In this document: positions 36,054 through 54,962 of the stretch, piece after piece | Layout of the letters: each line of letters begins with the position of its first letter | Position numbering within the stretch: position 1 is the first letter of the stretch | Assembly (NCBI GenBank): GCA_963707635.1 | Contig: OY970173.1 | Location: 32,001 to 96,000, forward strand | Length of the DNA stretch: 64,000 nt | Source: Candidatus Latescibacterota bacterium | GTDB lineage: Bacteria; Krumholzibacteriota; Krumholzibacteriia; WVZY01; JAKEHA01 | Reading direction: 5' to 3' | Translations under genes and position numbers: made by a program | The notes under the pieces: generated by a model | What the model was told of the DNA's origin: nothing | Seen by the model: the letters and a program-made list of their open reading frames with translations, nothing else | Databases searched by the model: none

Positions 36054-39000
36054 TCAGGCCACTGCTTCGAGACTTTCCGAGCAGTCGGGTGTGGCTTCGG
36101 CTGGGGCCGGAGTGGGGTCGACCTGGGAATGAGACGCGTGTTCGGCGCTACGCTCGCGCCACTCGTCGCGCACCTTGTCCTCGCGGTAGCGCTTGAGGAA
36201 ATAGCCGATTGTCTCCACACGAATCTTGATCGAGCCGGCGGGCCGGTTTTCGTCCAGGTCCTTGAAGGAGAAGTACGGCGTCCCCGAGCACTCGATGATC
36301 TCTTCGACCACGCTGTAGATGGGGGCGTCGTGGCCGCACTTGAAGTTGGAAAGCTCCAGCGCGACCAGATTGGGGTGGCGCGCGGTGTACTTCGCCGCCC
36401 ATACCTTGCGGCTCGTGTTCTCGCTGTAGGCGTTCTTCCAGACGTCCATGATGTCCATCGGGCTCGAGATCTCGCCGGCGCGGACCTCGTCGCCGAAGAG
36501 ACGCTCCAGCATATCTGCGTCGATCGGGAGCGAGTCCTGCGTGAAGACCGGGTAGCCGAGCTTCTGGAACTCGACCAGGATCTCGTGGTTGATGCCGGGG
36601 TCGTTGTGGTACGGGCGACCGAGCACGACGATGCCGATCTTCTGCTCGGCTTCGAGCTGATCCAGGACCTCGCGCGCCTGGCGACGGATCGACACGGTGT
36701 ATTCGTCCAGCGCTTTGTAGCCCGCTTCGACCGCGCGCTGGTTTTCTTTGTCCGAGAGCCCGAGCACGTCCTTGAACGCGGCCATCATCTGGCGCGCGAA
36801 CAGGTGCGGCTGCGCCACGTTCACCAGCGGGCACAGATAGCGAATCCCCTTCTTCGCGAACAGGTCGCCCTCCTTGGTGAAGGCGGCTTTCACGGCCTCG
36901 GGCGTCGCGGTCACGGTCGGGCACGCGCGGCAGTCCTGGGTCTTCACCAGCTCGCTCGGAAGATCGTCGATCATCGGGAAGAAGATCACGTCCAGCGGCT
37001 TCTTCTCGTGCTGCTTGAAAATGAGGTTGTGGACGTGCGGGATACCGAGCTTGCTCGGGAAGCACGGGTCGATGGCGCCACGCTTGGCCCCTTCCTTGTA
37101 CAATTCTTCGTTGGTGTAGTCCGAGTACACGAGGTTCTGCGGGCGCACCCCGAGCGACTCGAAGTATCCGGAGAAAAGCGGGTTGGTCGAGTACTGGTTC
37201 AGCATCTTCGGTATGCCGATGCGGAAGCTCTCGCGCTGCTTCATCAACTCGACCCGCTGCTTCTGCGCGGACGTGAACGCGTGCTTCGGCGGCGCCTCGG
37301 CCACGCTCTCCGGCTTGAAGCTCTTGAACACGTCGCGCGCGCTCTTCTCGACGAAGTTCGGCGCCGCCTTGAGGCGGGCGTCGAGGTCCTTCTTGATCTC
37401 GCGCATCGACTCGACGTCCTCGACCAGCCCCTTTTCGCACGAGTTGTTGACGATCAACCGCCGCGCGCCGGCCATGAGCGGCACTTTCGACTTGCGCGCG
37501 CCGGCGGTGGCGCTGGCCGTGTCCACCTCGCCCTGGTCGCGCTTGACCACGCCGGAGGCTTCGACGTCGATGAAGGTGCGCAGGCACTCGTTCTTGCAGA
37601 AGTGGCAGCGCGTATCCTCCGAGGTCGTGGCGGTGTAGGCGATCATCTTGACCGCGTCCAGGCCGATGAATGTCGACACGCGCCCGTTTTCCCACAGCCG
37701 CGCCGCCTCGATTGCCGCGCCGATCGCACCGCTCTCGCCACAGTGGGTATGAATGATGATCTCCGGGTTGTCGCCATTGCAGCGAAATCTCGATTCGATG
37801 AAGTCGACCTGCGACTTGACGGCCGCGAGGTTGCGCTGGGTGCCGCCCTGGAGGACGAACTTCTTCCCCAGCTTGGCGAGATTCGGAATCTGCGCCACGT
37901 AGAGCCAGATGTTTTTTGGAAGCACCGCCGCCAGGCCGGCCATGATCTCGGCCGCTGTCCAGCCCTGACGCTGGAAATCGACGATGTCGGACTGCATGAA
38001 CACCGCGCAGCCGTAGCCGAAGGTCGGCATCTGCTCGGCCGCGAAGGCGGTGTCCGCGAACTGCTCGACCGGCACACCGAACTCGCCCGCCGTGCTCTGG
38101 AGGAAATAGCCATTCCCCGCCGAACACTGCGTGTTGAGCTTGAAGTCCTTCACACTCCCGCCGTTGAGCACCATGATCTTGATGTCCTGGCCGCCAACGT
38201 CGCAGATCACGTCGACGTCGTCGTAGAAATGGAGCGCCGATTCCGCGTGCGCGACGGTCTCGACGATGGCGGCATCCGCGCCGAGCACGTCGCGCAGCAC
38301 GTCCTTGGCGTAACCGGTGGTACCCACACCCAGGATCTCCAAGCGCGCGCCCTGGGACTCCACGTGGCGCTGGATGTCCCCGATCACTTCGATCGTGTCC
38401 TTGATGGGGTTGCCCTTGGAGAGCTGGTACGACTTGGCGAGTACTTCTCTCTCGGTGGAGAGCAGCACCGCCTTGGTGGACGTCGAGCCGCCGTCGAGGC
38501 CCACGAAGGCGCGGACGACTTCGCCCGCCGCAAACGCCGCCTGCACGAACGGCTCCGGCGTGTAGCGTTCCTTGAACGCGGCCAGGTCCGTCGCGTCCTT
38601 GCTCAAGCCCGCGCTCGCCTTGGCCTTGCTCTGCTTGCGGCCGACGGTGATGTACTCCTCGAGCACCGCCCATCCTTTGTATACGCCGACGCCTTCGTCC
38701 TCGTCCTTGCCGTACTCGATCGCGCCGATCGCCGCGTAGTACTGCGCGTTCTGCGGCACGACGATCAGCGACTTCGGGTCGACTCCCTCCGGGATCGCGA
38801 CCTCGCGTTCTTTCCACACGATCGGGATGTTGTGCTGCCAGGCTTCGCGCATGCCGCGGATGTAGGTGTTGGGACCGCCGAGCAGGATCACTTCCGGGCG
38901 CAGCGTATGCCCGCGCGTCAACACGGAGAGATTCTGGCCGATGATCGCCTCGAAGAGGCTCGCCATCAGTTCTTCGGTGGGGATGCCCTGCTTCTGGAGA

Positions 39001-39569
39001 CCGTTGATGTCGGTCTCGGCGAAGACGCCGCACTTGCCGGCGACGTGGTGGAGCTTGACCCCGTGGTAGCCCTGCTCGCAGAGCTCGTCGGGCGGGATGC
39101 GGAGCTTGGCGTTGATCTTGTCGATGACGGCTCCGGTGCCGCCGGCGCACTTGTCGTTCATCGACGGAATCTTTTTCTTGCGGCCGGTCTCGGGGTCTTC
39201 TTTGAAGACGATGATCTTCGCGTCCTGGCCGCCGAGCTCGATCACCGAGCCCGCCTTCGGGTGCTCCTTCTCCACCGCGAGGCAGACCGCGTTGACTTCC
39301 TGCACGAACTTGGCCCCGATGCGGGGGCTCATGTTCATGCCGCCGCTGCCGGTGATGAAGACGCGGACTTCCTGCGCGGTCACGGCGGCGACGAAACCGT
39401 CGACCTCGCCGTCGACGCGCTTCAGGAACTCGAGGACTTTTTCGGGCTGTTTGGTTTCGTGGCGCTGGTAGTCGTGCCAGAGGAGCCGGTCGGTGGCCGC
39501 GTCCACGACGACGGCCTTCACCGTGGTCGAGCCGACGTCCATACCGATCAGGAATCGGGTCGCGGCCAT
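36054..39569 (-). CDS. PlsA/Ger-like protein: two BcrAD/BadFG ATPase domains plus DUF2229/dehydratase-like domain
   Basis: Two ASKHA activase modules (GMDVGSTT...MNDKCAGGTG; GLDGGSTS...LNTQCSAGNG), C-terminal DPCFPSK, LGRPYH.DPGINH, SNFKCGHDA. The family call is firm; ether-lipid function is inferred. Confidence 0.8.
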   Translation of the reverse strand: MAATRFLIGMDVGSTTVKAVVVDAATDRLLWHDYQRHETKQPEKVLEFLKRVDGEVDGFVAAVTAQEVRVFITGSGGMNMSPRIGAKFVQEVNAVCLAVEKEHPKAGSVIELGGQDAKIIVFKEDPETGRKKKIPSMNDKCAGGTGAVIDKINAKLRIPPDELCEQGYHGVKLHHVAGKCGVFAETDINGLQKQGIPTEELMASLFEAIIGQNLSVLTRGHTLRPEVILLGGPNTYIRGMREAWQHNIPIVWKEREVAIPEGVDPKSLIVVPQNAQYYAAIGAIEYGKDEDEGVGVYKGWAVLEEYITVGRKQSKAKASAGLSKDATDLAAFKERYTPEPFVQAAFAAGEVVRAFVGLDGGSTSTKAVLLSTEREVLAKSYQLSKGNPIKDTIEVIGDIQRHVESQGARLEILGVGTTGYAKDVLRDVLGADAAIVETVAHAESALHFYDDVDVICDVGGQDIKIMVLNGGSVKDFKLNTQCSAGNGYFLQSTAGEFGVPVEQFADTAFAAEQMPTFGYGCAVFMQSDIVDFQRQGWTAAEIMAGLAAVLPKNIWLYVAQIPNLAKLGKKFVLQGGTQRNLAAVKSQVDFIESRFRCNGDNPEIIIHTHCGESGAIGAAIEAARLWENGRVSTFIGLDAVKMIAYTATTSEDTRCHFCKNECLRTFIDVEASGVVKRDQGEVDTASATAGARKSKVPLMAGARRLIVNNSCEKGLVEDVESMREIKKDLDARLKAAPNFVEKSARDVFKSFKPESVAEAPPKHAFTSAQKQRVELMKQRESFRIGIPKMLNQYSTNPLFSGYFESLGVRPQNLVYSDYTNEELYKEGAKRGAIDPCFPSKLGIPHVHNLIFKQHEKKPLDVIFFPMIDDLPSELVKTQDCRACPTVTATPEAVKAAFTKEGDLFAKKGIRYLCPLVNVAQPHLFARQMMAAFKDVLGLSDKENQRAVEAGYKALDEYTVSIRRQAREVLDQLEAEQKIGIVVLGRPYHNDPGINHEILVEFQKLGYPVFTQDSLPIDADMLERLFGDEVRAGEISSPMDIMDVWKNAYSENTSRKVWAAKYTARHPNLVALELSNFKCGHDAPIYSVVEEIIECSGTPYFSFKDLDENRPAGSIKIRVETIGYFLKRYREDKVRDEWRERSAEHASHSQVDPTPAPAEATPDCSESLEAVA

Positions 39570-39609
39570 GGCGGGAGTATGGACCAGGCGGCCGGGCGAG
39601 GGCAAACGG

Positions 39610-39634
39610 AATAGTGGAAGGGCCTTCCTTTATT
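39610..39634. promoter_or_regulatory. 25-bp palindromic operator candidate, copy 1
   Basis: AATAGTGGAAG-GGC-CTTCCTTTATT, 4 nt upstream of a minus-strand TTGCCC-N18-CATACT promoter. Confidence 0.65.
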
Positions 39635-39759
39635 GCGCGTCTCGATCGAGAGACCCGCGCGTGCCGGAGGCAAGAAGCGCTGTCGCGGCAGTTCTTGCCG
39701 GGCGCACCCCCGAGGTTACGCGGCGCCGCTGGAACAAGTCTTGCGGGTTGCCGGCCGCA

Positions 39760-41499
39760 ATGGCTCCCGTCGGTCCGGACGATCCCACTCTGCTGGAACG
39801 CGTTGAGCGCCTGGAGCGCGTGGTCGAAGGCCTGCTCGAACGCGACTCGAGCTCACGGGCTGCGCTCGCCGACGCTCGGCCCACGCCTCCGCCCGCTCTC
39901 GAATCGCGGGGCGGGCCGCCGCGCGCTGCAACGCCGTCTGCGCCGCCGCGTCCCGTCGCGCCGATGCCCGCGCATCGTTCCGCCCAGGTGGCAGCGATGG
40001 ATCTTCGCTCGGTGCTGCGCGTGGTCGGTATCGCGCTACTCTTGTTCGGCGTCGCGTTCCTGTTCAAGTACTCCCAGGACGAGTCGGAATGGCTCCGCAG
40101 CCTGCGCGTTCTGATTGGCATCGGGCTCGGAGTCAGCCTCACCATCGCCGGTCGCGTGCTGCTCGGACGTGACCGGCCGTTCGCACAGATTCTCACCGGC
40201 GGCGGCATTGCGACGTGGTTCATGTCGGGCTTCGCCGCGTACCAGCTCTTCGGTCTGATCGGGGCGGTTACCGGCTTCGCGTACATGGCGACGGTGACGA
40301 CCGCGGCCTTCGCGATCTCGGTTCGACAGAACTCGCTGGCCCTGACGATCGTCGCCACCATCGGGGGGCTGGCCACGCCGTTCCTGCTCTACGACCCGAC
40401 GCGAAGCGTGTGGGGCGTGTCGCTCTACGTGGTCACCGTCGCGTCGGCCGCGCTCGCGATTCATCGCCGGCGCGGCTGGTGGGCGCTCCTGTGGATCGCC
40501 GCTGCCGGATCCTGCTATGCCGTGTCCGCCACGGTCGTGTACTACTTCACGCCAACGACGCCGCACAGCGAACGCGTCGTGCTGCAAGGCGCGCTATTGT
40601 TCCTCTACGGCTTGTTCGCTCTCTCGACCGCTGCCGGATATGTTCGCGGGGTGCGCGCGGGCGAGTCCGGTGACGCGTACGATACCCGCCTGTTCCTGGT
40701 GACGCTGATCCCCGTCGGCACGGTCGCCCTGACGCACACGATCTGGAGGCTCGATCAGGAGCAGCTGGGCCAGTTGTGCCTCCTCTTCGCGTTGGTTTAT
40801 CTTGGTGCAACCGTCGTCCGTTTCCCACGCGACGAGCTGGGCCGGTTGATCAACGCCTATCTCTTGCTGGCGTCGGGATTCGCGACCGTCGGCGCGCTCG
40901 CGCTCGTAGACGGCGAGATGCAGCATCTTGCCGTTGCGACCGAGGCGTTGCTCCTGCGACGCCTCACACTTCGGTCGAAGCGCGTTTCCATCGCGAACGC
41001 GATCTCGCACGGGCTATTCGGGATATGCGCGCTGCTGGTGCTGCGCGACCTCGTGGTCGACCACTCGCCGAATGTTCCCCTGTTCAATCGAACCGGGGTC
41101 ACGACGCTGTGGTCGATCGTCGCGGCGACGATCGCGGCTCTCTCGCTGCCGCGCGAAAAAGGGCGGATTCGCCGCTTCTACCTGTACGCGGCGCACGTCC
41201 TGATTCTGGCGTGGATCCTCCGCGAGTTCGCCGCGGTTGCCAGCGGCCAAGCGATCGTGACGATCATCTGGGGTGGGTATGGGGTGACGCTGCTGATCGC
41301 AGGACTCCGACGCACCAGCCGGCCGATGCGCACCGTCGGGTTCTTGACCCTGCTCGCCGTTGTCACCAAGCTCTTCGCCGTCGACCTCGCGTCGGTGCGC
41401 GCGATCTGGCGCGTCCTTCTCTTCATTGGATTCGGTGGCGTTTTCCTGTCGCTCAGCTACTGGTTCCTCACCCTGGATCGCGGCGCGCGGAAGCAATAG
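39760..41499 (+). CDS. DUF2339-family multi-pass membrane protein
   Basis: LERVERLE coiled coil, Pro-rich linker, GIALLLFGVAFLFKYS, GGLATPFLL, KLFAVDLA....WRVLLFIGFG. Confidence 0.88.
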   Translation: MAPVGPDDPTLLERVERLERVVEGLLERDSSSRAALADARPTPPPALESRGGPPRAATPSAPPRPVAPMPAHRSAQVAAMDLRSVLRVVGIALLLFGVAFLFKYSQDESEWLRSLRVLIGIGLGVSLTIAGRVLLGRDRPFAQILTGGGIATWFMSGFAAYQLFGLIGAVTGFAYMATVTTAAFAISVRQNSLALTIVATIGGLATPFLLYDPTRSVWGVSLYVVTVASAALAIHRRRGWWALLWIAAAGSCYAVSATVVYYFTPTTPHSERVVLQGALLFLYGLFALSTAAGYVRGVRAGESGDAYDTRLFLVTLIPVGTVALTHTIWRLDQEQLGQLCLLFALVYLGATVVRFPRDELGRLINAYLLLASGFATVGALALVDGEMQHLAVATEALLLRRLTLRSKRVSIANAISHGLFGICALLVLRDLVVDHSPNVPLFNRTGVTTLWSIVAATIAALSLPREKGRIRRFYLYAAHVLILAWILREFAAVASGQAIVTIIWGGYGVTLLIAGLRRTSRPMRTVGFLTLLAVVTKLFAVDLASVRAIWRVLLFIGFGGVFLSLSYWFLTLDRGARKQ

Positions 41500-41505
41500 G
41501 GGCCT

Positions 41506-41876
41506 GCCATTCTTGGCCACGTCCTGCTGGTCGTAGGCACGGCGGGGGCAAACGGAATAGTGGAAGCGCGGTATTCCATTGCCGGCAGCGGCCCGGCTGC
41601 TCACGTCGGCTGGCGTCGGGCAGTAGCGTGCCGATATTGATTCATCAAGCCCTCGCCCAGGATTCTGTCTGCTTCGAGTTGATTGTGGCGCGCGCAGAGG
41701 AGCCGAAGATTGCTCGCGTGGCTTGTCCCGTCCCGCGCGACCGGCGTGATGTGATCGACCTGAAGAGTGCGCGTCTCACCGCCTGGCCGCTCCCCGCGAC
41801 ATACGTTCTCGCGCGCCTTCTGGTCCCAGAAATTGCGCATAGACGCGGAGGTGGATTCGGGGTCACGCGGCGGCAT
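41506..41876 (-). pseudogene. Relic methyltransferase 5' end interrupted by an HNH endonuclease fragment
   Basis: MPP...SMRNFWDQKAREN and RAYDQQD match the N-terminus of the 49789 gene; the ~255 bp between them encode LQVDHITPVARDGTSHASNLRLLCARHN. Confidence 0.7.
41546..41566 (+). repeat. 21-nt direct repeat GGGCAAACGGAATAGTGGAAG (other copy 39600-39620)
   Basis: Exact match; the two copies flank the DUF2339 gene. Confidence 0.85.
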
Positions 41877-41979: not shown

Positions 41980-44647
41980 CTACTTGAGCAACACCATCTT
42001 CCTCGTTTCGTTGAACTCTCCGGCGCGCATCCGGTAGAAGTACACACCCGACGCCACGCGCTGGCCGCGATCGTCGTCGCCGTTCCACTGCACCGACCAC
42101 GTGCCTGCGCTGCGATGCTCGTCGACCAGCTCGCGCACCATGCGACCCGCCACGTCGTAGATCGTGATGTTGACGTCTGCGCCGCCCTCTGGAATGTCGT
42201 ACGCGATCGTGGTGATCGGATTGAACGGGTTGGGCACGTTGGGATGTAGCGCGAACGACGTCGGGACAGGCGGAGCGCCGATCCCGGTGGGCGTCAGTGT
42301 CGCAATCACGAATGGCGACAGCGTCGCCACGTGGCCGCAGATCACGTTGTTCACCAGATCCCGCGTCGTCGTGACGTCCACCCACGCCGAACCGTCGTAG
42401 TGCGCGATGACGAGATTCCCCTCCGGGCCCGGGATGTTGTTCTCGTCGTAGAACAAGCACACGTCGACACCTCCCGTGTACGAGGCGTCTGTCGTCACAT
42501 CGAAGTAGATCGACGGATCGTTCGGGTTGCCGACCGTAAAGTTCGACGACACCGGCACAGGCGGCGTGAACGGGTTCACCACGAAGGTGTTGCCGGGGCT
42601 GCTTACGTCACCGTATGTCGCGCTTCCTCGAACGTTTCCATTTGCGTCCACGAGATCGACGAGAACACTCGAGCCTACAGGGGTGTTCTCGGAAAGAATG
42701 CAAAATGACAGCTCCGACGTACTGCCGCTCGCGTTGGTCGCGGTGGCCACGATGTAATTCGCAGGGGGAATCGGTTGCGCGGGTGTGAAGGTAAACGAAG
42801 CAGTCCCGCCCCCGTCCGTATTGACTACAATTTCCCCCATGTAGATTTCCGCGTTGCATGAGCTAAAGCTTTGCGGAGATCGGTAAAAATTGAGCGTGAT
42901 GGACTCGCTGAACCCCCCGTGCATGATCCCCGAGACCTGGTTGCCACTTGCCGCCGAGACATCGGGGAAGTTCTGCAAGTAGTTGGCTCCAAAATCGAAG
43001 TCAAGGAAGTCGTTGATCGTGATGCCGTCCTGGCCAAGGTCGATCCCTTGAGCGGCGATGTGGTGCATTGAATTGCCCACAATCCGATTGTCAACTGAGT
43101 AGGGGTCCGAGACTACGACCCCATAGTCGCCATACGCAATCACGTTGGCTTCTCCGGGGTTCGCGGAACCGATGTGGTTGGATTGCGCGCCGCCCAGGAG
43201 CATGACTCCGATGTCGTTCCCCAGGGATGTGGACGCATCTGCGCCGATTCCGATGTAATTGCCGTAGATCCCGACGCCGTCGGCCCCGTCCACTCGCACG
43301 CCGTAAACGCTCCACCCAATCACGTTGCGGCTGGCTGGCGCTGCACCCCCCACCACACACCCGTCGGATTCGATCAAGACACCGGTCAGGTTCCCGTTGC
43401 CGGTAATCCCCGACGCGTCCATGCCGATGTAGCTGCCCTCCACGACGACGCCGGGCGAGCTGACTCGGATTGCTGCTCCCGCCCACCCATGGGTCGAGAG
43501 TCCGCGTACCACTCCGGGCGACTGGAACACCAGGCCATCCGGGGAGCCCGCAAACGGCCCCCAAAGACTGACCTCTATTTGCGCGTCCAACGGTTCACCG
43601 ACGGGATTGGTGTTGGGCGATGCCCCGGGCTGAGTAAATCCATCAATGATCAGCTGATGGGTAATCACCGGCAGGGCCGACAAGAGCGTGATCATGTGCG
43701 GACCGGGACCGGGGATATCAAACGAAATGGCCCCCGCCTCTGGGGAAGAGCCATGGACAAGCATCGCCCGCCTCAAGGTGCCACTCGTGTTGGTGTCGGC
43801 GGTGCTGGTCACCTTGTAGATGTGCCCGACCGTGCGGCTTACGCAAACGTTGTCGATGAGGGGCGCGTGCGAATGGCACGCTCCGCCGGGGCCCCAGGTC
43901 CACGCCATGTCCTTGACACCGACTGCCACCTGCACGTCCGTGGCACCGCCCGGAATCGGGACGACGAACCCAGCAAGATTGTTTCGAAACCAGACCTTCG
44001 CCGCCGAATAGTAGGCGTAACCGTCGTCCATCCACGCAGTCGGCACGCCGGCGACCATGAAACGAACCTTCCAGACATAGAACACCAGGTTGGCCAGCGG
44101 CAGATCCATGTACGCATCAAACGTGAGTGTCAACTGATCGAACTCTGCCGGTACCGGCACACCGTCCTTGTCGTCCGCGAGCGGTATCCATTTGGACGCG
44201 ACCTCGTTATGGATGTAGTCGCTATAGGAATGCGACCCCGGATTGGTGGTCTTCGGAACCGCCAGCTGGCTCGGGTAGCCACCGCACCCGTAGTCATCCG
44301 GAGAGTTCTTGTAGAACGACCAGAAATGCCCGTCGTTGAAGTAAGCGGGGTCCTCCTGCACAACCGAGGCGCCCGACACCAGGTCTGCGTATAGTCCGAA
44401 GCCTGACGAGTCCACCGCCACCCATCCTTCCGTGGAGGGACCGCCGACGCCGTCTTCGAAGGTGTATTCCTTCAGTATGCGCCCGAGTGAGGCCGGGGGG
44501 ACCTCGCACGGCGGCAAGCCCGGGATCTGGGGGTTAGCAGCGCGTGAGGGACTCGGATCTGGATTGTACTTCGACCTGAAACGGTTCGAGCTGCTTTGAG
44601 AACGCGAGCACAGGGAGAATCAGAACCGCGAAGAACAAGGCCTTCAT
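41980..44647 (-). CDS. Secreted protein A: unique N-domain, right-handed beta-helix, beta-sandwich, FlgD/T9SS-like CTD (frameshift ~44580)
   Basis: Signal peptide MKALFFAVLIL at ATG 44647; [29 protein letters not shown] repeats, [16 protein letters not shown]...KMVLLK. Confidence 0.85.
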
Positions 44648-44757: not shown

Positions 44758-44793
44758 GATCTATTGGACGAAAACGCGGAGCCGAATCACACG
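44758..44793 (-). promoter_or_regulatory. Candidate ECF-sigma promoter of gene A
   Basis: CGTGT-N18-CGTCCAATAGATC. Confidence 0.65.
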
Positions 44794-44827: not shown

Positions 44828-45493
44828 CTATCGGATTCGAATGGATCCGGGTTCGGAGACCTCGATGGTGTCCCCCGCCTGGAGCGCATACACCCGCCAC
44901 ATGAGATCGAGGCTGGGTGGTAGGTCCGACGGCAACAGCGACCGATCGATCACGACCGACGTCTCCGCGACAGCGGGATGGCGGTAGATCTCCGTCAGGC
45001 CCGGGCCGTAGATGCGAACCTGGTACGCATCCGCGCCGGGAACAGGGGCCCAGGAAAGGTGAATGGATCCGTCGGAGCGTACCTCGGCGGGCGGAAGGGC
45101 CCCGGACTGTGTGGCCGATCCGCTGCGCAAGAGAATGCCTTCCGGTCCACGCGACTGCTGCCATACCACGACGGCGAAGACCGCAACCGCCCCGGCTGCA
45201 ATAAGCGGAGCTGGGCGCAGGAGCCCGCGCAACCGAATCGAAAAACTCGCAGATGACCGCCGCGACTCGGGCGGGCGCTTCTCGCCCACCTTCGAGGCAA
45301 TCAACGCATCCAGCGTCCGGCGCGCGGTCTCGGTGTCGAACCCGGCCACCGGTTCGGCGCGAAGAAACTCATGATAGGACCGCCAGAGGTTCCGACAACG
45401 AGGACAGTCCTCGACATGCCGCCGCATCGGGTGATCCGCCGCCAGTTCGGCAACTTCACCGATTGTCTCGCTCTCAATGCATCGAGTCTCCAA
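44828..45493 (-). CDS. Zinc-binding (ZAS) anti-sigma factor, single TM, periplasmic FN3-like domain
   Basis: HVEDCPRC (HxxxCxxC), TM PLIAAGAVAVFAVVVW, LSWAPVPGADAYQVRIY; directly downstream of the sigma gene. Confidence 0.85.
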   Translation of the reverse strand: METRCIESETIGEVAELAADHPMRRHVEDCPRCRNLWRSYHEFLRAEPVAGFDTETARRTLDALIASKVGEKRPPESRRSSASFSIRLRGLLRPAPLIAAGAVAVFAVVVWQQSRGPEGILLRSGSATQSGALPPAEVRSDGSIHLSWAPVPGADAYQVRIYGPGLTEIYRHPAVAETSVVIDRSLLPSDLPPSLDLMWRVYALQAGDTIEVSEPGSIRIR

Positions 45494-45508
45494 TTGAGTC
45501 TCCTTCCA

Positions 45509-46066
45509 TCAAATTCCGCGGTCGATGGCGGCGCGGAGCTTTCTGCGCGCGCGCTGGAGGACGGCCCGCGCGCCGGATGCGCCATCGATACTCAACATCG
45601 CCGTGATCGCTTCCAGGCCCATTCGTTCGAAACACCGCAGCCAGATGACATCCTGTTCCAGCGGCTCCAGTTCGGTCCGGATCATCTGAAGGAGGCGTTC
45701 CTCGTCTTCGTCCTGCTCCACCGTCACATCCGCGAGTGGCACCGGATCGGGGACATCATCCGGGACGTCTTCGTCCGCAAGGAGTTCAACCCGCCGGCCG
45801 GAGTCGATGCAGCGGTTCCGCGTGACGGTGAAGACCCACGAGGAGAACTTCGACCGTCCCTCGAACGAGCCGACCCGCTTCCACACGGTCAAGAGCACTT
45901 CCTGCGACAGATCCAAGGCGCGTTCCGGGTCGCGGGTGTAGCGCAGGCACCAAAAGTACACCGCGTCGCGGTAACGACGCAGGAGCTCCTCCACCGCTTC
46001 GCGCCGTCGCGCCTCGTCAGGGTCGTTTCGGGCGACCCGGAGCAGGTCGTCGTCCGGGCCCCTCAC
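45509..46066 (-). CDS. ECF RNA polymerase sigma factor
   Basis: Region 2 ALDLSQEVLL...FEGRSKFSSWVFTVTRNRCID and region 4 HTH. Start GTG 46066 (alternative ATG 46084). Confidence 0.92.
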   Translation of the reverse strand: MRGPDDDLLRVARNDPDEARRREAVEELLRRYRDAVYFWCLRYTRDPERALDLSQEVLLTVWKRVGSFEGRSKFSSWVFTVTRNRCIDSGRRVELLADEDVPDDVPDPVPLADVTVEQDEDEERLLQMIRTELEPLEQDVIWLRCFERMGLEAITAMLSIDGASGARAVLQRARRKLRAAIDRGI

Positions 46067-46069
46067 TTG

Positions 46070-46101
46070 ATTAGACGCAGCCATCTTCTCGGGTTCACAC
46101 G
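46070..46101 (-). promoter_or_regulatory. Candidate autoregulatory ECF promoter of the sigma gene
   Basis: CGTGT-N19-CGTCTAAT (also reads GAAC-N16-GTCTAA), 3 nt before the GTG start. Confidence 0.65.
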
Positions 46102-49014
46102 CGATTTGGGTCGGAATACAAGTTATCCACGCGACGTGGGCGCCGCCTCCGCACGACCGCCATGGTCGTGCCGGCAAGTGCCAGCGCCAGCAGGGCAAGA
46201 AGTGCCGGGCGGAGACGGGAAGCCCTTTCCACCCTTACCACCATCGAGCCATCCCCGACCACGGTGAAACCGGCCCAGTAGAATGGATGCGACACGGCCG
46301 CGGGTGCGCCGGGTGTCGAGCTGCGCAAGGCGGAGCGACGTCGCCACCGATTCGCCCTTCGCGAGGTGCTCATAGAAACAGCGCATCACCCGGGCCGTGG
46401 CGCGGTCGTCGATGGGCCAGAGGCTCGACACCACCACGGGGACTCCCGCGCTCATGAACGCGGCGGTGAGCCCGAGGACTCCCTCGCCGGTGGTGAGACG
46501 CCCACCCGCCGTCTCACAGCCGGCGAGCACGGTGAGCGTCATGGGGAGCGACAGCTTCGCGATCTGCCACGCGCGCACGAAGGGGTCGCCTCGAAACGCC
46601 CGCGCGACCAGTGCGGAATCGGCGGATGAGAGAATGGCCGTGGTATCGGCTGACGAACGGGTCGTTGTCGGGATCGATGCGATCCCGGAGTCCGCCGCTT
46701 CGGCGACTGCAACCAACCGCAGGCCGGACTGCCATGGGGACTGATCGACGATGAGCGCATGAGCGGCAACGTGAAGCACGTCGCACTCGGAGAGAACCAC
46801 CGCAAGCCCATCCGCGCCACCGACGAGTCCACGCACGCGGTGCACGCCGGCATAACGGGTCGAGAGCGCGCGAACCTCCGCGTCAGCGCCGGGCAGTCTC
46901 GATTCCGTCGATGCTTCGAGAGCGACAAGCCTCGCCGCACCGCCGCGCGATCGGGTTGGACGAGACCGCTGGAGTGAGAGCACGCTGGCGGATGGTATCT
47001 GCACGACGTCCTTCGTCTCCATGAGCAAGCGCGACGAGTCGCCAGGCATCAGCGTCCCGAACGGGATCGACGCGAAGAACCCGTCGGGCGCGACGAACAC
47101 ACGCTGCGCTTTCTCCACCAGGTCGACCACCTCGCCCATCACGGCCATGCCAATGTACTGCTGGATCGACGCCAGGCGCTCAGGCGGAAAATCCGCCTGC
47201 AAGGCCAGGTCGGCGCTTGCCATGGCGCGGTGGTAGAGGTCGATGCTCTCGGCGAGCGGCGAATCCGGCCCTGGGAGCTTGACGAGGCGCAGAGAGTCGG
47301 ACGTAACCGCCACCAGATACGATTCGGCGCTCCCGACGAATAGCTCGAGCAGCAACTCGCCGGGCCGGAGTACGCGGCCCTGCAGTTCATCGATCGTGGC
47401 AACTCGTTGGACGGTTGCCGGTTCCGTTTCGGTGCGCGGCTCGCTGATCCGGTCGAGAAGGCTTCGGGTCTTGAAGCGCTGCATGCAGTCGAAGAAAGCC
47501 CTCTCACGCACCGGCGTCGGGAGACCTTCCGGGTACTCGAGCAGCACTTGTCCGGCGTCCAGAACGTCGCGCGCATTGTCCTGGCCGAATGTTTCACGCC
47601 ATTCGGGCGTGTTGATTCCACGGCGTGCGGTTTCGAGGCTGTCGAGCCCGTCGACCAGCGACGCGTACGCCTCCGCCCTCCGACCCAGAGTGCGGTAGCA
47701 CACGCTCTCCCGCAGGCGGGCGGTCACGGCTACTCGTTGCGACGTCATGTTCTGCGCGCATTTGACCGCCCGGTGCGCGGATCGCAACGCCGCCTCCGGA
47801 TGGTTCGCCCGCTCGTGCAGACGCGACAGCAGCAGGTACGCAGCGGGTTCGGCCTCCGCGTAGACGTTCGCCCCGCTCGCTTCGAAGTTCTCAATTAGCA
47901 GCTCGATCGCCTGTGGAACACTGTCGTTGCTCGCGAGCACCCGGGCGAGCCCGATAACGGCCAGGTCCCTGTGCTGGGGTTCGAGCCGGTCTGTCACGGC
48001 CAGCAGCCGCCGATAGATGGTTCCGGCCGCATTGTACTTGCCCTCGGCGATTCGCAGATCGGCCAGGCTGACGTCCACCATGTTTGAGAACTCACCGCCT
48101 CCCCGCGTGCGGCACACGTCCTTCGCGTCGTTCAGAATCGCCTCCGCATGGGCGAAGTCGCCGAGCTCCTGGGCCCGCGCCGCCAGATTGAGGGCGGGAA
48201 TCACCATTCCGCGCGGAAAGCTGATCTCGCGCGCGATGTCGAGCGCCCTCTGAAAATACGCGGCGGCGCGGCCGGGATCACCGTTGGCCGACTCGAGGGT
48301 TCCGAGGTTGTTGACCGCCCACATCTCGTTCACGCGATCGCCGGCTTCGCAAGCGACGATCCATGCTTGCTGAAAGCAACGCTTCGCTTCCGCCTCGCTC
48401 CCGACTGCGTGCTCGACTCGACCCAGGCCGATCAGCGGTTCGACCGTCAGACGCGGGCTTCCACTTTGACGGAACAGTGTGATCGCGTGTCGGTACTCTG
48501 CTCCTGCCCTGGCGTTATCGCTGAGCAAGTGAGCACAGTAGGCGATAGCGCTCCGCGCCCATGCCTCGTCGATCGTGGAATGGACCTTCCTGGCTAGCAG
48601 CAAGCGCTTTTCAAAACAGCGCGTGGCATCGTCGTAGCGGGCCTCGCCCGTGTATACAAACCCCTTGTAGTGAACGGCCGGCATCCATCCGACGGTGTCG
48701 CGCGCCGCCTCCGCGATACGGATGGCGATGTCGATATCATGCTCGGCCTCGACTCGGCGACCGACCATGATGAGAACGCGGCCGCGCTGGGCGTACATGC
48801 GCCCCAGCAGGATCGAATCGCGCTCCGCTTCGGCGCGCTGGATGTATGCGGGGATCAGGCTGAGGATGGAATCATACCGGGAAGCGGTGAAGAGGTCATC
48901 GATACGGCGCCGGATTTCGGTCGTAGTGAGCCGTCCGGTTTCGCCCGCGGCAGGAACGGTGGGGGTTGCCAGAAGAACCAGGAGCACAGGGATTGCGGGA
49001 GGATGAATCCGCAT
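46095..49014 (-). CDS. TPR-CHAT (caspase-like) protease with signal peptide and C-terminal membrane anchor (frameshift ~46300)
   Basis: Hydrophobic N-terminus from ATG 49014; TPR repeats; VAPDG, VLHVAAHA (His), VLAGCETA (Cys), GEGVLGL, VSSLWPIDD; shifted frame gives HPFYWAGFTVVG, then a TM helix and RRRRPRR. Confidence 0.9.
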
Positions 49015-49019
49015 GATCG

Positions 49020-49789
49020 CTATGGCGAACTGGCCGTGATCCGACGTGCGAGCACCCAGGTGTACTGCGTCCCCTCTCCCAGGACGCGCTCGACCGCGCA
49101 TTCCTCCCGCCGCAGCGGCCGCGACCTGCGCGAGAGTCACGCGCGACCCCTGCCATGCCGGGTGTTCGAGGTCGCGCGGGCCGTTCGACACGGCGGCGGA
49201 GTGAACGATGTCGTGTCGACCCGAGCAACGTGCGTTTGAGTCGCCCGAGCGCCGCGCGCAGCGCCCCGAGTTGCGGCATCGTGTTCACCTGGAAATAGAA
49301 ACTCCCGCCGGGTCGCAGCACGCGCCCGGCGTCGCGGATGTACGTGAGCGTGACGTTTGCGTCTGGGATGTGCTGGAAGACGATATACGAGAACACGAAG
49401 TCGAAGCTCGCGTCGGGGTACGCCGAGAGGTCGACCCCGTTGCCGACGTCGAGGCGGACATTCGCGCAGGCATCGAGGTTCACTCTCGCCTGCCGGATCA
49501 TCTCTTCGGAAACATCGAGCCCGGTGACGTGGCCAAAGCGGCCGGCGAAGTACTTCGTCATGCGCCCGACGCCGCAGCCGATCTCGAGTAAACTTTCTTG
49601 CCCGGTGAACGGGAGGCCGGATTCGGTGAGGAACTTATCGGCGAGAATCCCGCCCCACTTCCAGAACTCGGCCGGATCCTGCTCGTCGTACGCGCGGTAC
49701 GACGAGATGTAGTACATCGCGTTCTCACGCGCCTTCTCGTCCCAGAAGGCGCGCATGGACGACGGGGGATCGGGGGCATGCGGCGGCAT
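49020..49789 (-). CDS. Class I SAM-dependent methyltransferase (frameshifts ~49215 and ~49095)
   Basis: LEIGCGVGR, GLDVSEEMI, FDFVFSYIVFQHIP, RVLRPGG; restored C-terminus ...GEGTQYTWVLARR...stop 49020. Confidence 0.88.
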
Positions 49790-49828: not shown

Positions 49829-52244
49829 TTACCGCGCGATCACCATCTTGCGCGTTGCTGTCTCCCCGCCCGCCGTGACCCGGCAGAAATAGACACCGCT
49901 GGCGAGAGGGCGGCCCCGATCGTCGTCCCCGGCGAGCGAGATGGTCCGCCAGCCCGCGGGCACATCGGCCAGGTTCATGCTACGCACCCGCCGACCCGCC
50001 GCGTCGAAGACGTCCAGGCGCAGGTCCGCCTTCGCGGGTAGCCCCACGGCGAACTCCGTGTGGCCGCGGAAGGGGTTCGGGTGGTTCTGCAGCACCGTGA
50101 GAGCAGAGGCAGGCGGCGTGCTGCCCACCCCCGTGGTCGCCCCCACGTTCGCCTCGTTCGACGGCGTGCTCTGGTTTCCGTGCACGTCGCTCGCGGTGAC
50201 GATGTAATAGAGCGCGCTCGCGGGTGCGCCGCTGTCCACCAGACACCGTGTCGCCGACGCTCGACAGGAAGTTGACGGGCACTGCCGTCACCCCCGAAGA
50301 AGTTGCCCGGTACACCACGTAGTTCTTCAGATCGCGTCACGCGCACGCGGTTCCACTTGAGCTGCACATCCGCGCCCGCGCGCTGCGCGGTCAAGAACAG
50401 CGGTGCGGTCGGTGCCAGGTTGTCCACCGAATGCCCGCTCATCACGTTCGACGGCCAGAATCGTATATCCATCGCTCGTCTCCGAAACTCACTATGAAGT
50501 GATGCTGCGCGAGGCCCTGAACCGTCGAGTCCGCGCGCGTCGACGTGCTGAAGCTGTAGGTCGGGAAATACTTGGCGTCCTGATTACCGACCCACTCCCA
50601 GTAATAGTCGGTCAGGGGCCCATGCTGGACCCAGAATGCTTGGCCCTGAAAATCGGCCGGGACACGCAAGGGTTCGGCACCGCCGTACGTAACTGCCTCT
50701 GCACTCTGCATCACCGCCGCGTCGGTTGCCCTCCATACCGAGTAGTGGCTGATCGTGCGCAGGTTCAATTGATCCCAATCACCCGCTTTCCAGTTCACCT
50801 TCACCTTGCCCCCCTGATCCCCCCGCACGTCAGCCACCGAGGTGATGATCGGTTCCGGGTGCCCCCAGTACCCGTATCGAAACTCCACCCGCTGCGCGTA
50901 GACGTCGTTCGTGCTGCCGCTTCGACGAGAGTCGTGCCACGTCACGATCGCCCCGCCCGAACCGTCCGAGACAATCGTGGGGTAGGACTGGTCGCCCGCC
51001 GCGGTGCACAGGGCCACTCCATCGCCCGTCCACTGCACTGCGCCCGAGGGGCTCACCCGCTGCGCGTAGACGTCGTACGTGCTGCCACTTCGAGAGTCGT
51101 ACCACGTCACGATCGCCCCGCCCGAACCGTCCGAGACAATCGTGGGGTAGGACTGGTCGCTCGCCGCGGTGCACAGGGCCACTCCATCGCCCGCCCACTG
51201 CACCGCACCCGAGGGGCTCACCCGCTGCGCATAGACGTCGTACGTGCTGCCGCTTCGCAAGTCGAGCCACGTCACGATCGCCCCGCCGGAACCGTCCGAG
51301 ACGAGCACGGGGGAGTCCTGGTGGTTCGCCGCGGTCGAGAGCGCCACTCCATTGCCCGTCCACTGCAGCGCCCCCGACGCGTTCACCCGCTGGGCGTAGA
51401 TGTCGGGGGTGCCGCTTCGCCAGTCGAACCACGTAACGATCGCCCCACCGGAACCGTCGGCAACGATCGTGGGAGCAAGTTGATCGTTCGCCGCGGTGCA
51501 AAGGGCCACCCCATTGACCGTCCACTGCACAGCCCCCAAGGCGCTCACCCGCTGCGCGTAGATGTCGAACTTGCCGGTTCGCAAGTGCTGCCACGTCACG
51601 ATCGCCCCGCCGGAACCGTCGGCGACGATCGTGGGAATAAGTTGATCGTTAATCGCGGTGCAAAGGGCCACCCCATTGACCGTCCAGTGCACAGCACCCG
51701 AGGGGCTCACCCGCTGCGCGTAGATGTCGGCATTGCCGCTTCGTACGTCTTGCCACGTCACGATCGCCCCACCGGCACTGTCCGAGACGATCGTCGGGAA
51801 AGCCTGCTGGTCCACCGCGGCACACAGGGCCACGCCGTTGGCCGTCCACTGTACCACCCCCGACGCGTTCACCCGCTGCGCGTAGATGTCGTAATTGCCG
51901 CTTCGCAAGTCCTGCCACGTCACAATAGCCCCACCCGAACCGTCCGAGACAATCTTGGGGACGGCCTGGTCGTTCACCGCAATGCACAGCGCCACGCCGT
52001 CGGCCGTCCACTGCACCGCACCCGAGGCGTTCACCCGCTGCGCGTAGATGTCGTAATCGCCATTTCGATTGTCCTGCCACGTCACGATCGCCCCCCCGGA
52101 ACCGTCCGAGACAATTGTGGGGTAGGACTGGCCGCCCGCCGCGGTCGTGAGGGCGGTGCCATCGGGTTGCCACTGCCCGAGCGCCGGAAGTGGGGCGAGA
52201 AGAAACACGAGAACCAGTAGAGAGAATGAGAAACAGGGTTTCAT
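49829..52244 (-). CDS. Secreted protein B: 8-repeat propeller-like domain, Ig/FN3-like modules, CTD (four frameshifts, 50240-50490)
   Basis: Signal peptide; 8 x ~60-aa repeat [38 protein letters not shown]-terminal half near-identical to gene C; CTD ends KMVIAR. Confidence 0.87.
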
Positions 52245-52317
52245 ACGCGGCCTCCGAATCAAGACGGTGCCGACGACAAGGCAGAGCGCGCGAGGAGCCG
52301 CGTCAGCCTCCGTCGTC

Positions 52318-54721
52318 CTACCGCGTGATCACCATCTTGCGTGTCACCGTCGAGCCCGCCGCCGTCACGCGATAGAAGTACACACCGCTCGCCAGCGGCT
52401 CGCCCTGGTCGTTCACACCCGAGAGCGACACCTTCTGCCGAACCCTTCATCCCCGCCTGCTGGACCTCCCGCACTCGCCGGCCCGCCACGTCGTACACCT
52501 CGATCGTGATTGCTTCCGCCGACGGTAACCCGATCTCAACCTCCGTCGTCCCCGCGAATGGATTCGGATAGTTCTGCAGCACCGTGAGAGCAGAGGCAGG
52601 CGGCGTCCTGCCTACCCCCGTGGTCGCCCCCACGTTCGCCTCGTTCGACGGCGTGCTCTGGTTTCCGTGCACGTCGCTCGCGGTGACGATGTAATAGAGC
52701 GCGCTCGCGGGTGCGCCGCTGTCCACCAACACCGTGTCGCCGACGCTCGACAGGAAGTTGACGGGCACTGCCGTCACCCCCGAAGAAGTTGCCCGGTACA
52801 CCACGTAGTTCTTCAGATCCGTCACGCGCACGCGGTTCCACTTGAGCTGCACATCCGCGCCCGCGCGCTGCGCGGTCAAGAACAGCGGTGCTGTCGGTGC
52901 CAGGTTGTCCACCGAATGCCCGCTCATCACGTTCGACGGCCAGAATGTATATCCATCGCTCGTCTCCGAAATCACTATGAAGTGATGCTGCGCGAGGCCC
53001 TGAACCGTCGAGTCCGCGCGCGTCGACGTGCTGAAGCTGTAGGTCGGGAAATACTTGGCGTCCTGATTACCGACCCACTCCCAGTAATAGTCGGTCAGGG
53101 GCCCATGCTGGACCCAGAATGCTTGGCCCTGAAAATCGGCCGGGACACGCAAGGGTTCGGCACCGCCGTACGTAACTGCCTCTGCACTCTGCATCACCGC
53201 CGCGTCAGTTGCCCTCCATACCGAGTAGTGGCTGATCGTGCGCAGGTTCAATTGATCCCAGTCACCCGCCTTCCAGTTCACCTTCACCTTGCCCCCCTGA
53301 TCCCCCCGCACGTCAGCCACCGAGGTGATCATCGGTTCCGGGTGCCCCCAGTACCCGTATCGAAATTCCACCCGCTGCGCGTAGACGTCGTACGTGCTGC
53401 CGCTTCGATAGTCGAGCCATGTCACGATCGCCCCGCCCGAACCGTCCGACACAATCGTGGGGTAGGACTGGCCGCCCGCCGCGGTGCACAGGGCCACTCC
53501 ATCGCCCGTCCACTGCACTGCGCCCGACGGGCTCACCCGCTGCGCGTAGACGTCGTACGTGCTGCCGCTTCGAGAGTCGTACCACGTCACGATCGCCCCG
53601 CCCGAACCGTCCGAGACAATCGTGGGGTAGGACTGGCCGCCCGCCGCGGTGCACAGGGCCACTCCGTCGGCCGTCCACTGCACCGCACCCGAGGCGTTCA
53701 CCCGCTGCGCGTAGATGTGGTAAGGACCGCTTCGATTGTCGTGCCACGTCACGACCGCACCGCCAACACCGTCCGAGACGATCTTCGGGGAGGTTTGGTT
53801 GTTCGCCGCGGTGCACAGGGCTATTCCGTTGCCCGTCCACTGCAGCGCCCCCGACGCGTTCACCCGCTGCGCGTAGATGTCGGGGGTGCCGCTTCGCCAG
53901 TCGAACCACGTCACGATCGCCCCGGTGGAACCATCCGAAGCGATCGTGGGGTCTTCCTGATAGTTCGCCGCGGTGCAGAGGGCCACTCCATCGCCCGCCC
54001 ACTGCACCGCACCCGAGGCGCTCACCCGCTGCGCGTAGATGTCGTAGTTGCCATTTCGATTGTCCTCCCACGTCACGATCGCCCCGCCGGAACCGTCCGA
54101 GACGATCATGGGAGTAAGTTGATCGTTCGTCGCGGTGCAAAGGGCCACCCCATTGGCCGTCCACTGCACCGCGCCCGACGCGTTCACCCGCTGCGCGTAG
54201 ATGTCGCCAACAACTCCGGGTCGAGCGTCTTGCCACGTCACGATCGCCCCGCCGGCACCGTCCGAGACGATCGTCGGGGAAACCTGCTGGTCCACCGCGG
54301 CACACAGGGCCACGCCGTTGGCCGTCCACTGTACCACCCCCGACGCGTTCACCCGCTGCGCGTAGATGTCGTAATCGCCATTTCGATTGTCCTGCCACGT
54401 CACGATCGCCCCCCCGGAACCGTCGGAGACGATCGTGGGGAAGGACTGGATGTTCGCCGCCGTGCATATGGCCATTCCATCGGCCGTCCACTGCACCGCA
54501 CCCGAGGCGTTCACCCGCTGCGCGTAGATGTCGGCGGTGCCGCTTCGATTGTCTTGCCACGTCACGATCGCCCCCCCGGAACCGTCCGAGATGATCGTGG
54601 GGGTATCCTGATTGCCCAAGGCGGTCGAGACCGCGGCACCATCCGGCTGCCACTGCGCTCGACTGATGCTCGGATGAACGAGAGTCGACAAAACGAAAAG
54701 GGATACCGAAAGCGTTTTCAT
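52318..54721 (-). CDS. Secreted protein C: 8-repeat propeller-like domain, Ig/FN3-like modules, CTD (frameshift ~52441)
   Basis: Signal peptide; 8 repeats; GYWGHPEP...DQGGKVKVNWKA; DNLAP.AP; QNYPNPF; restored end SGVYFYRV...KMVITR. Confidence 0.9.
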
Positions 54722-54741
54722 CTTTGGCCTCGTTTCGCGTT

Positions 54742-54903
54742 CTACTTCAGCAGCACCATCTTCTTGGTGTCGACGAACTCACCTGCGCTCATCCGGTAGA
54801 AGTACACACCGGACGCGACGCGACCCCGGCCGTTGTCATCCCCGTGCCACGTCACCGACCAGCGCCCGCCCGGCCGGTGTCGACGACCAGGTCGGAGCTC
54901 GCG
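54742..54903 (-). pseudogene. Orphan CTD remnant (type found in genes A and E)
   Basis: [35 protein letters not shown] with no upstream gene body. Confidence 0.75.
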
Positions 54904-54962
54904 ATACTCGGAGGGCTCTCGCGTTAAGGACAAGCTTATCACGAGCGCTGGGCCGACGCAAC

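Follow-up and report, generated by a model that had tools for sequence, protein, structure and literature searches.

Can a protease encoded beside a sigma factor of the extracytoplasmic function (ECF) type and its membrane-bound anti-sigma factor release that sigma factor from across the inner membrane? The question is raised by three genes that adjoin head to tail, all on the minus strand, in a 64,000-nucleotide stretch of the genome of Candidatus Latescibacterota bacterium (assembly GCA_963707635.1, contig OY970173.1, positions 32,001 to 96,000; hereafter the window, whose own numbering is used below). They encode a TPR-CHAT protease, an ECF sigma factor and an anti-sigma factor. From sequence, predicted structures and analogy, we consider that the protease probably cuts the anti-sigma factor after Arg123 in response to a cue, itself probably a peptide, after which RseP would free the sigma factor to act on its own operon and a few genes for secreted proteins.

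The protease gene (46095..49014) encodes a separase-like enzyme of clan CD with a signal-like N-terminal leader, a TPR superhelix, a CHAT domain and a C-terminal anchor with a basic tail. Pfam CHAT (PF12770) matched residues 634-906 (E 6.6e-40; 137.8 bits against a cut-off of 24), TPR families were also matched, and the catalytic His752 (VAAH; 46759..46761) and Cys833 (AGCE; 46516..46518) are each present in 118/118 sequences. The best sequence match of the CHAT profile in the PDB was DdvA (E 1.3e-7), while the model of an orthologue, P0034 (predicted local distance difference test (pLDDT) score 90), returned separase, DdvA and Csx29 as its best folds; the named homologues are from Candidatus Krumholzibacteria. 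The sigma factor (45509..46084; start ATG 46084) scored 91.7 bits against TIGR02937 (sigma70-ECF; cut-off 42.9) and consists of sigma2 and sigma4 only, with no NCBIfam subfamily above its cut-off.

The anti-sigma factor (44828..45493) gave no Pfam match. It combines a CHCC zinc domain, one membrane helix (predicted at residues 96-114), a disordered linker and an outer domain of FN3 fold. Its zinc-type residues are C5, H26, C30 and C33, kept in further representatives at 121/123, 109/123 and, for both C30 and C33, 123/123; the N-terminal domain is predicted to bind zinc. The ligands match the C6/H28/C32/C35 spacing of DdvA, and by this likeness the domain would also bind the sigma factor. In the model of the orthologue from locus L034 (pLDDT 84), three N-terminal helices are followed by a helix of membrane length, a disordered segment (116-127) and a beta sandwich, for which FN3 domains gave the strongest structural matches (best E 7.7e-4). 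Both surface-type and core positions of the FN3 domain are conserved.

The predicted P1 residue, Arg123 (ILLR|SG; 45125..45127, minus strand), lies within the low-pLDDT segment 116-127. It occupies one of three invariant columns among 56 anti-sigma factors with 39% mean identity (56/56) and is found in 118/123 further representatives, as frequently as the structural Cys, Trp and Tyr; the other five have an Arg a few columns off. The flanks are variable except for the preceding Leu and a following Gly, and the distance to the helix is narrow (quartiles 10-12). The rule [LVIMY]R[GDSN] was satisfied by 109/127 family members, compared with 7/143 single-segment proteins of the genome and 0/5 other zinc-finger membrane proteins without a nearby CHAT gene, although it misses the anti-sigma factor of one further trio of this genome (L001), and the scan missed that of another (L002). 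Published precedents include HetF, which cuts PatU3 at R117|S118 with the Arg being required (PMC9457339), and separase, which cuts after Arg in unstructured chains (PMC10317155); Csx29 cuts after Met or Leu (PMC11506125). Arg conservation and the HetF precedent support a probable cut of the anti-sigma factor after Arg123, and Arg specificity of the enzyme is plausible.

The first-pass annotation of this DNA had staked its proposal on the trio being conserved in relatives, and the trio is indeed kept. The anti-sigma profile found matches in 37/61 relatives, and a wider profile in 87/151 genomes of the phylum. Among 44 anti-sigma-like matches in the loci fetched first, the window included, a sigma gene and a CHAT gene are both adjacent in 37; the misses are two contigs ending at the sigma gene, a true pair without a CHAT gene (L069), three helix-FN3 proteins that stand alone, and one fusion (L068). 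A further 40 loci were held out, 20 of them strong and 20 weak matches of the wider profile: sigma was adjacent in 40/40 and a CHAT gene in 36/40, with three contigs that stop at the sigma gene and one real absence (L093) making up the remainder. The association persists in three gene orders (CHAT-sigma-anti-sigma, sigma-anti-sigma-CHAT and divergent) while other neighbours vary. Protease and anti-sigma genes are separate in all trios, and a search for longer anti-sigma forms returned no CHAT fusion and 2 unrelated proteins, which is weak evidence. Across 69 trios the three proteins agree in a tree-like manner (Spearman 0.83-0.85), with a shared nearest neighbour in 37/69, which we do not count as evidence of interaction because neighbouring genes are co-inherited. 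Look-alike anti-sigma clusters in the Atlas are commonest in Krumholzibacteriota, Acidobacteriota and Aminicenantota, a lead only.

Is the copy in the window intact? The protease starts at ATG 49014, and its frame as assembled stops at 46123 (963 residues) and is junk beyond about residue 905. The CHAT end motif with the last strand, a hydrophobic segment (~46208-46152) and an Arg run are read in another frame that stops at 46095, and the closest unbroken homologue (L034) indicates a single extra base near 46293. It would be rather improbable that the module type is real and this copy is decaying, a genuine frameshift having removed the last CHAT strand and the anchor. The break does fall inside the end of the CHAT domain and the next gene is broken too, but the motifs on both sides are all intact, and in a public run of a near-identical strain a contig of 95% identity lacks one base at 46293 and reads in frame (at a depth of 4.6, one low-depth contig not being proof). 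In addition, the frame is broken in many other, unrelated genes across this single-contig assembly, among them the genome's second trio and several repeat genes. Given these breaks and the in-frame sister contig, the frameshift is probably an assembly error. The first-pass annotation had called three contiguous genes with one frameshift to correct, an intact His (VAAH) and Cys (AGC) dyad, and an ECF sigma factor with an anti-sigma factor bearing a zinc motif, one transmembrane helix and an FN3-like outside domain; each of these calls was borne out.

We assigned the signal peptide and the membrane helices from three criteria only: hydrophobicity, charge and conservation. In the shifted frame, the protease ends in a hydrophobic helix and an Arg run (46140..46208, minus strand). 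A C-terminal hydrophobic segment is present in 37/39 CHAT frames of the first loci, the exceptions being L001 and the window frame as assembled, and in 95/108 full-length database matches the helix is followed by at least two Lys or Arg residues. The N-terminus is hydrophobic in 88/108 of these matches, many of the misses being gene calls that start inside the leader; the most distant full-length matches have the leader and no anchor. Anti-sigma factors carry on average 2.7 Lys/Arg in the 12 residues before the helix and 1.2 in the 8 after it. Under the positive-inside rule, by which orientation is read from charge, this pattern would turn the CHAT domain and the anti-sigma linker outwards, each about 10-12 residues from its own helix. 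The protease is accordingly predicted to lie on the outer face of the inner membrane: from leader, anchor and charge, the CHAT domain, whose placement in the cytoplasm would have counted against the earlier proposal, looks exported and anchored.

What might the protease respond to? The TPR region spans about 500 residues, and LGN/Pins and kinesin light chains, which are peptide binders, are among the solved structures closest to it. This likeness suggests a peptide cue. We envisage that, at rest, the zinc domain of the anti-sigma factor holds the sigma factor. The His-Cys dyad would be aligned by a cue, probably a peptide to which the TPRs bind, and the protease would then cut after Arg123; this would take away the FN3 block, with some 12 residues left on the outer side. 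Only after this cut would RseP, for which the genome has a gene scoring above the TIGR00054 cut-off, cut the anti-sigma helix, and the freed sigma factor would transcribe its own operon and the secreted-protein genes from a GTGATT-N14-16-YGTCY promoter. We infer the cut, its site, its place before RseP and the function of the promoter.

The same conservation of Arg123 and of His and Cys would fit an arrangement in which the cut is constitutive and the fragments stay associated, with the signal admitting RseP by its action on either the FN3 domain or the complex, much as in self-cleaving anti-sigma factors (PMC11506125). The FN3 domain, with its conserved positions, could be a sensor, and the commonest gene order places the protease upstream of the sigma promoter, so that it would be made all the time. 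Some 500 TPR residues suggest instead allosteric control of the kind seen in separase and Csx29, and we judge a primed switch of this sort to be distinctly unlikely.

Glu713 (46876..46878, minus strand; its position is counted from His752) is present in 118/118 sequences (E717 in P0034) and sits where the catalytic core forms its first helix, behind the first strand of that core (helix 712-724 in the model). This position makes it a candidate S1 (Arg-binding) residue, as the S1 acid of MALT1 and gingipain is on alpha1 (PMC4357240, PMC4626109). In separase, human Asp2070 binds the P1 Arg (PMC10317155). Asp870, which is invariant here, was considered as a separase-type S1 Asp and rejected, since it aligns with Asp2066, not Asp2070. 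Csx29 lacks both acids that are invariant in this CHAT family. Self-cleavage within the variable loop that separates His from Cys was likewise rejected as a conserved feature: an Arg-type motif occurs in 50/118 sequences and the loop length ranges from 11 to 48.

We next consider what the sigma factor would control. A promoter-like motif, GTGAAC-N15-CGTCT (46073..46098, minus strand), precedes the sigma gene, overlaps the protease stop and is predicted to be autoregulatory; a second, GTGATT-N14-CGTCC (44766..44790, minus strand), directly follows the trio as a predicted target promoter. Behind it lies a predicted target gene for a secreted protein (41980..44647, minus strand), with a signal-like start at 44647, a frame break at ~44540 and a C-terminal sorting domain of the FlgD_ig or type IX secretion system (T9SS) kind. 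GTGATT-N14-16-YGTCY was found in 15/40 regions after the trio, compared with a mean of 0.11 in 500 shuffles, the pattern having been derived from the same 40 regions. A matrix made from the downstream sites, with pre-sigma regions excluded from training, then scored at least 15 bits in 22/40 pre-sigma regions, at a nearly fixed place, and in 6/600 random windows. Once training excluded the window site, 49 matches in the own genome exceeded 13 bits; a distant site, the window downstream site and the window sigma site ranked highest among them. The distant site is the best match of the genome (26.7 bits) and precedes, at G000:C1:1046185-1047060 (minus strand), the gene for a 259-residue secreted protein that is 57-73% identical to the product of the gene following the trio in L046, L040 and L050; this orthology is a useful independent check on the motif. 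In many loci a start codon lies a few bases after the -10 box. This suggests that the sigma/anti-sigma transcript is leaderless and autoregulated, in which case the sigma start of the window would be GTG 46066. The motif resembles the GTGATC/CGTA of ECF11, and the anti-sigma factor here is not of the ChrR type.

Most genes behind the motif have secreted products that carry tails of the FlgD_ig or T9SS type, FG-GAP repeats or beta helices; for the function of the downstream protein, Atlas matches stay below 0.9 and the beta helix is a lead only. The tail motif ends 65/2639 called proteins of the genome, and as there are few motif sites, the regulon looks small. In L055 (2138-14860), two trios flank one gene for a 1370-residue FG-GAP/FlgD_ig protein, with a promoter-like motif after each trio.

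That the downstream genes encode large secreted proteins raises the question of whether the protease is the site-1 enzyme at all. It might instead process or clear the secreted proteins of the regulon, or the signal, with the Arg serving another protease or the structure. The sigma/anti-sigma/CHAT order of L044, L055, L059, L064 and L066 would have the protease co-induced like a target. Yet the protease stays while the genes after the trio differ between loci and are often missing, and the related helix-FN3 proteins of L070-L072, which have neither a zinc domain nor a sigma or CHAT gene beside them, are without the xLR motif. We regard this alternative as very unlikely, and return to a protease that cuts the anti-sigma factor at Arg123.

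Several observations weigh against that reading. Glu713 is singled out as an S1 acid purely by its place on a helix, and a profile comparison between bacterial C14 caspase-like proteins and the CHAT family gave a probability of 0.2% with no alignment, which is uninformative. In a weak alignment (E 0.47), the Arg-binding Asp of separase corresponds to Ala here; at this position 84/118 sequences have Ala and 5/118 have Glu. The ILLR|SG site, which the first-pass annotation had put forward as speculative, is backed by Arg conservation and the Arg|Ser precedent of HetF. Two sigma/anti-sigma pairs (L069 and L093) keep the Arg without a neighbouring CHAT gene, the genomes compared are kin, and both the protease gene and the target gene of the window are frameshifted as assembled. 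The promoter signal was weaker in held-out loci (pre-sigma, 9/20 and 5/20 in two subfamilies; downstream, 5/20), and the second trio of the genome (L002) has no downstream site and a sigma site of 12.8 bits. Finally, mutation of His or Cys in DdvA was without effect in unstimulated cells, and self-cleavage was not observed (PMC11506125).

Some of these points would suit a protease that binds and shields the anti-sigma factor, or is held inactive by it, with the Arg motif as a docking site or pseudosubstrate and another periplasmic protease cutting first once the shield is lifted. The TPR-CHAT domain of DdvA blocks RseP and its dyad mutants still repress; the separase Arg-binding Asp is not kept here; and the genome encodes several PDZ-containing proteins (weak TIGR00054 matches). 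A pure shield would have no need of the His and Cys that all 118 sequences keep, and pseudosubstrates of the securin kind have another residue in place of the P1 Arg, which this family retains. On balance we hold shielding to be unlikely and favour cleavage at Arg123.

The nearest known system is DdvA/DdvS of Myxococcus xanthus (PMC11506125, PMC6061681; PDB 8rot, 8rw5), which shares an ECF sigma factor, a CHCC domain whose ligands are spaced alike, a single membrane helix, a flexible outer linker and a TPR-CHAT domain with His and Cys. Its CHAT domain is periplasmic, a CHAT site-1 cut followed by RseP has been proposed, and its local promoters (GTAA-n16-CGT) are autoregulated; the authors call a periplasmic CHAT site-1 protease "unprecedented", with validation awaiting the signal (PMC11506125). 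DdvA is fused in one polypeptide, whereas here protease and anti-sigma factor are separate and the protease has its own leader and C-terminal anchor. The outer part of DdvA is a TPR scaffold, while the anti-sigma factor here ends in an FN3 fold; DdvA controls a CBASS/CRISPR defence island, while the predicted targets here are secreted proteins with sorting tails. The fused form is reported in Myxococcota and one Comamonas (PMC11506125), and the split form here belongs to a Krumholzibacteria-type phylum. As it is not fused and has no defence genes, the locus falls outside the DdvA group, though it likely works alike. Of 154 neighbour proteins picked, 147 were scanned, and no link to a defence island emerged: 11/147 matched only ATPase-type PADLOC models, and the 4/4 that were checked are ATP-binding cassette (ABC) transporter ATPases.

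The first-pass annotation had likened the locus to type III-E Craspase (Csx29, Csx30 and CASP-sigma), in which a TPR-CHAT protease cleaves the inhibitor of an ECF-like sigma factor and local genes are turned on (PMC10028731). The fold match with Csx29 bears this out, but the analogy is more distant than that with DdvA/DdvS, which the annotation missed: Craspase is cytoplasmic and triggered by Cas7-11 with target RNA, and Csx30 is not a zinc-binding single-pass anti-sigma factor. The annotation was right that no Cas genes or array are present, a search of the own genome (3.2 Mb, one contig, 96% complete) having yielded neither a Cas1 nor a RAMP match, nor any run of CRISPR-like repeats. HetF of Anabaena PCC 7120, the founding CHAT protease, is likewise a membrane-bound TPR CHAT protease that cuts PatU3 after Arg before a small residue; its TPRs are periplasmic and separated from CHAT by a helix, and its substrate is not an anti-sigma factor (PMC9457339). 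ECF54 sigma factors have TPR-CHAT neighbour genes and regulation by proteolysis has been proposed for them, but they are described from Actinobacteria only, with no anti-sigma factor, a GTATCAG/CTCC promoter, and subtilase and carboxypeptidase-regulatory neighbours (PMC7826278, PMC8999054). The present locus has an anti-sigma factor, another motif and another lineage, which places it outside ECF54.

DegS is a PDZ serine protease, whereas the enzyme proposed here for site 1 belongs to the clan CD cysteine proteases, has a TPR sensor and has its gene next to that of each sigma factor. The DegS/RseA/RseP/RpoE pathway is similar in that a separate membrane-anchored sensor protease cuts first and RseP second (PMC10028731, PMC11506125). 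We found no description of a separate exported CHAT protease paired with a zinc anti-sigma factor in the literature searched, most subscription journals lying outside the search. The arrangement is not categorically new, as DdvA and Craspase supply the logic, and Craspase proves that a TPR-CHAT protease can release a sigma factor, in the cytoplasm and under CRISPR control (PMC10028731). For the step proposed in DdvA, the locus provides parts that can be separated, together with a scissile bond and a promoter that are both predicted.

Related arrangements vary around the same theme. All three CHAT matches of the genome adjoin a sigma/anti-sigma pair. At L001:7317-11187 (G000:C1 ~793300-797200), an ECF sigma factor, an anti-sigma factor with zf-HC2, helix and TPR, and a TPR-CHAT protein with a leader and no C-terminal anchor form a trio that is closer in layout to a literally split DdvA. 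The second trio of the window's own family, at L002:6940-11060 (G000:C1 ~917900-922100), has its CHAT gene in two frames and an anti-sigma frame that overruns the usual end. Loci L101-L119 represent a second trio subfamily with a TGTCAT-type -35 box and an MRG/LRG-type linker, two of the loci being divergent; the proteases of L111, L112, L114 and L118 in this subfamily have no C-terminal anchor. In L068 (7028-10363, minus strand), one frame encodes TPR-CHAT, two hydrophobic segments, the Arg motif and FN3, and lacks the zinc domain. We rejected it as a Rosetta stone, as it is a single case in an 86%-complete genome with no cognate sigma factor (best 31-33% identity); it is more likely a deletion remnant. 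L070, L071 and L072 (~7900-8450) contain the stand-alone helix-FN3 proteins, which have no zinc domain, xLR motif, or sigma or CHAT neighbours.

Elsewhere in the window, near-duplicate secreted proteins with repeats of about 65 residues and FlgD-type tails are encoded at 49829-56141 (minus strand), several of them split by frame breaks. A short open reading frame directly after the predicted target gene (41601-41876, minus strand) has what we take to be an HNH-like motif. The unrelated neighbours at 36054-41499 and 48896-49789 are a coenzyme A-activase-type ATPase (BcrAD_BadFG, DUF2229), a DUF2339 membrane protein and, immediately upstream of the protease, an S-adenosylmethionine (SAM) methyltransferase.

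We tentatively raise the possibility of a widespread form of signalling across the envelope, so far undescribed, that would give each ECF sigma factor its own membrane-anchored receptor protease of the caspase clan: the TPRs would read a peptide cue, possibly from the sorting-tail proteins of the regulon, an Arg-specific site-1 cut would follow, and paralogous trios of one genome would act as insulated channels. The natural two-protein form, the predicted R123|S124 bond, the catalytic residues and the predicted promoter make the proposed step testable with separate soluble parts and a reporter, and the signal may not be needed for such a test if the isolated CHAT domain is active as that of HetF is (PMC9457339). 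If the proposal is true, caspase-clan proteases would join the sensor proteases of the envelope, outside phage defence, and the locus would define a first regulon of secreted-protein genes for a phylum represented here by metagenome assemblies alone.

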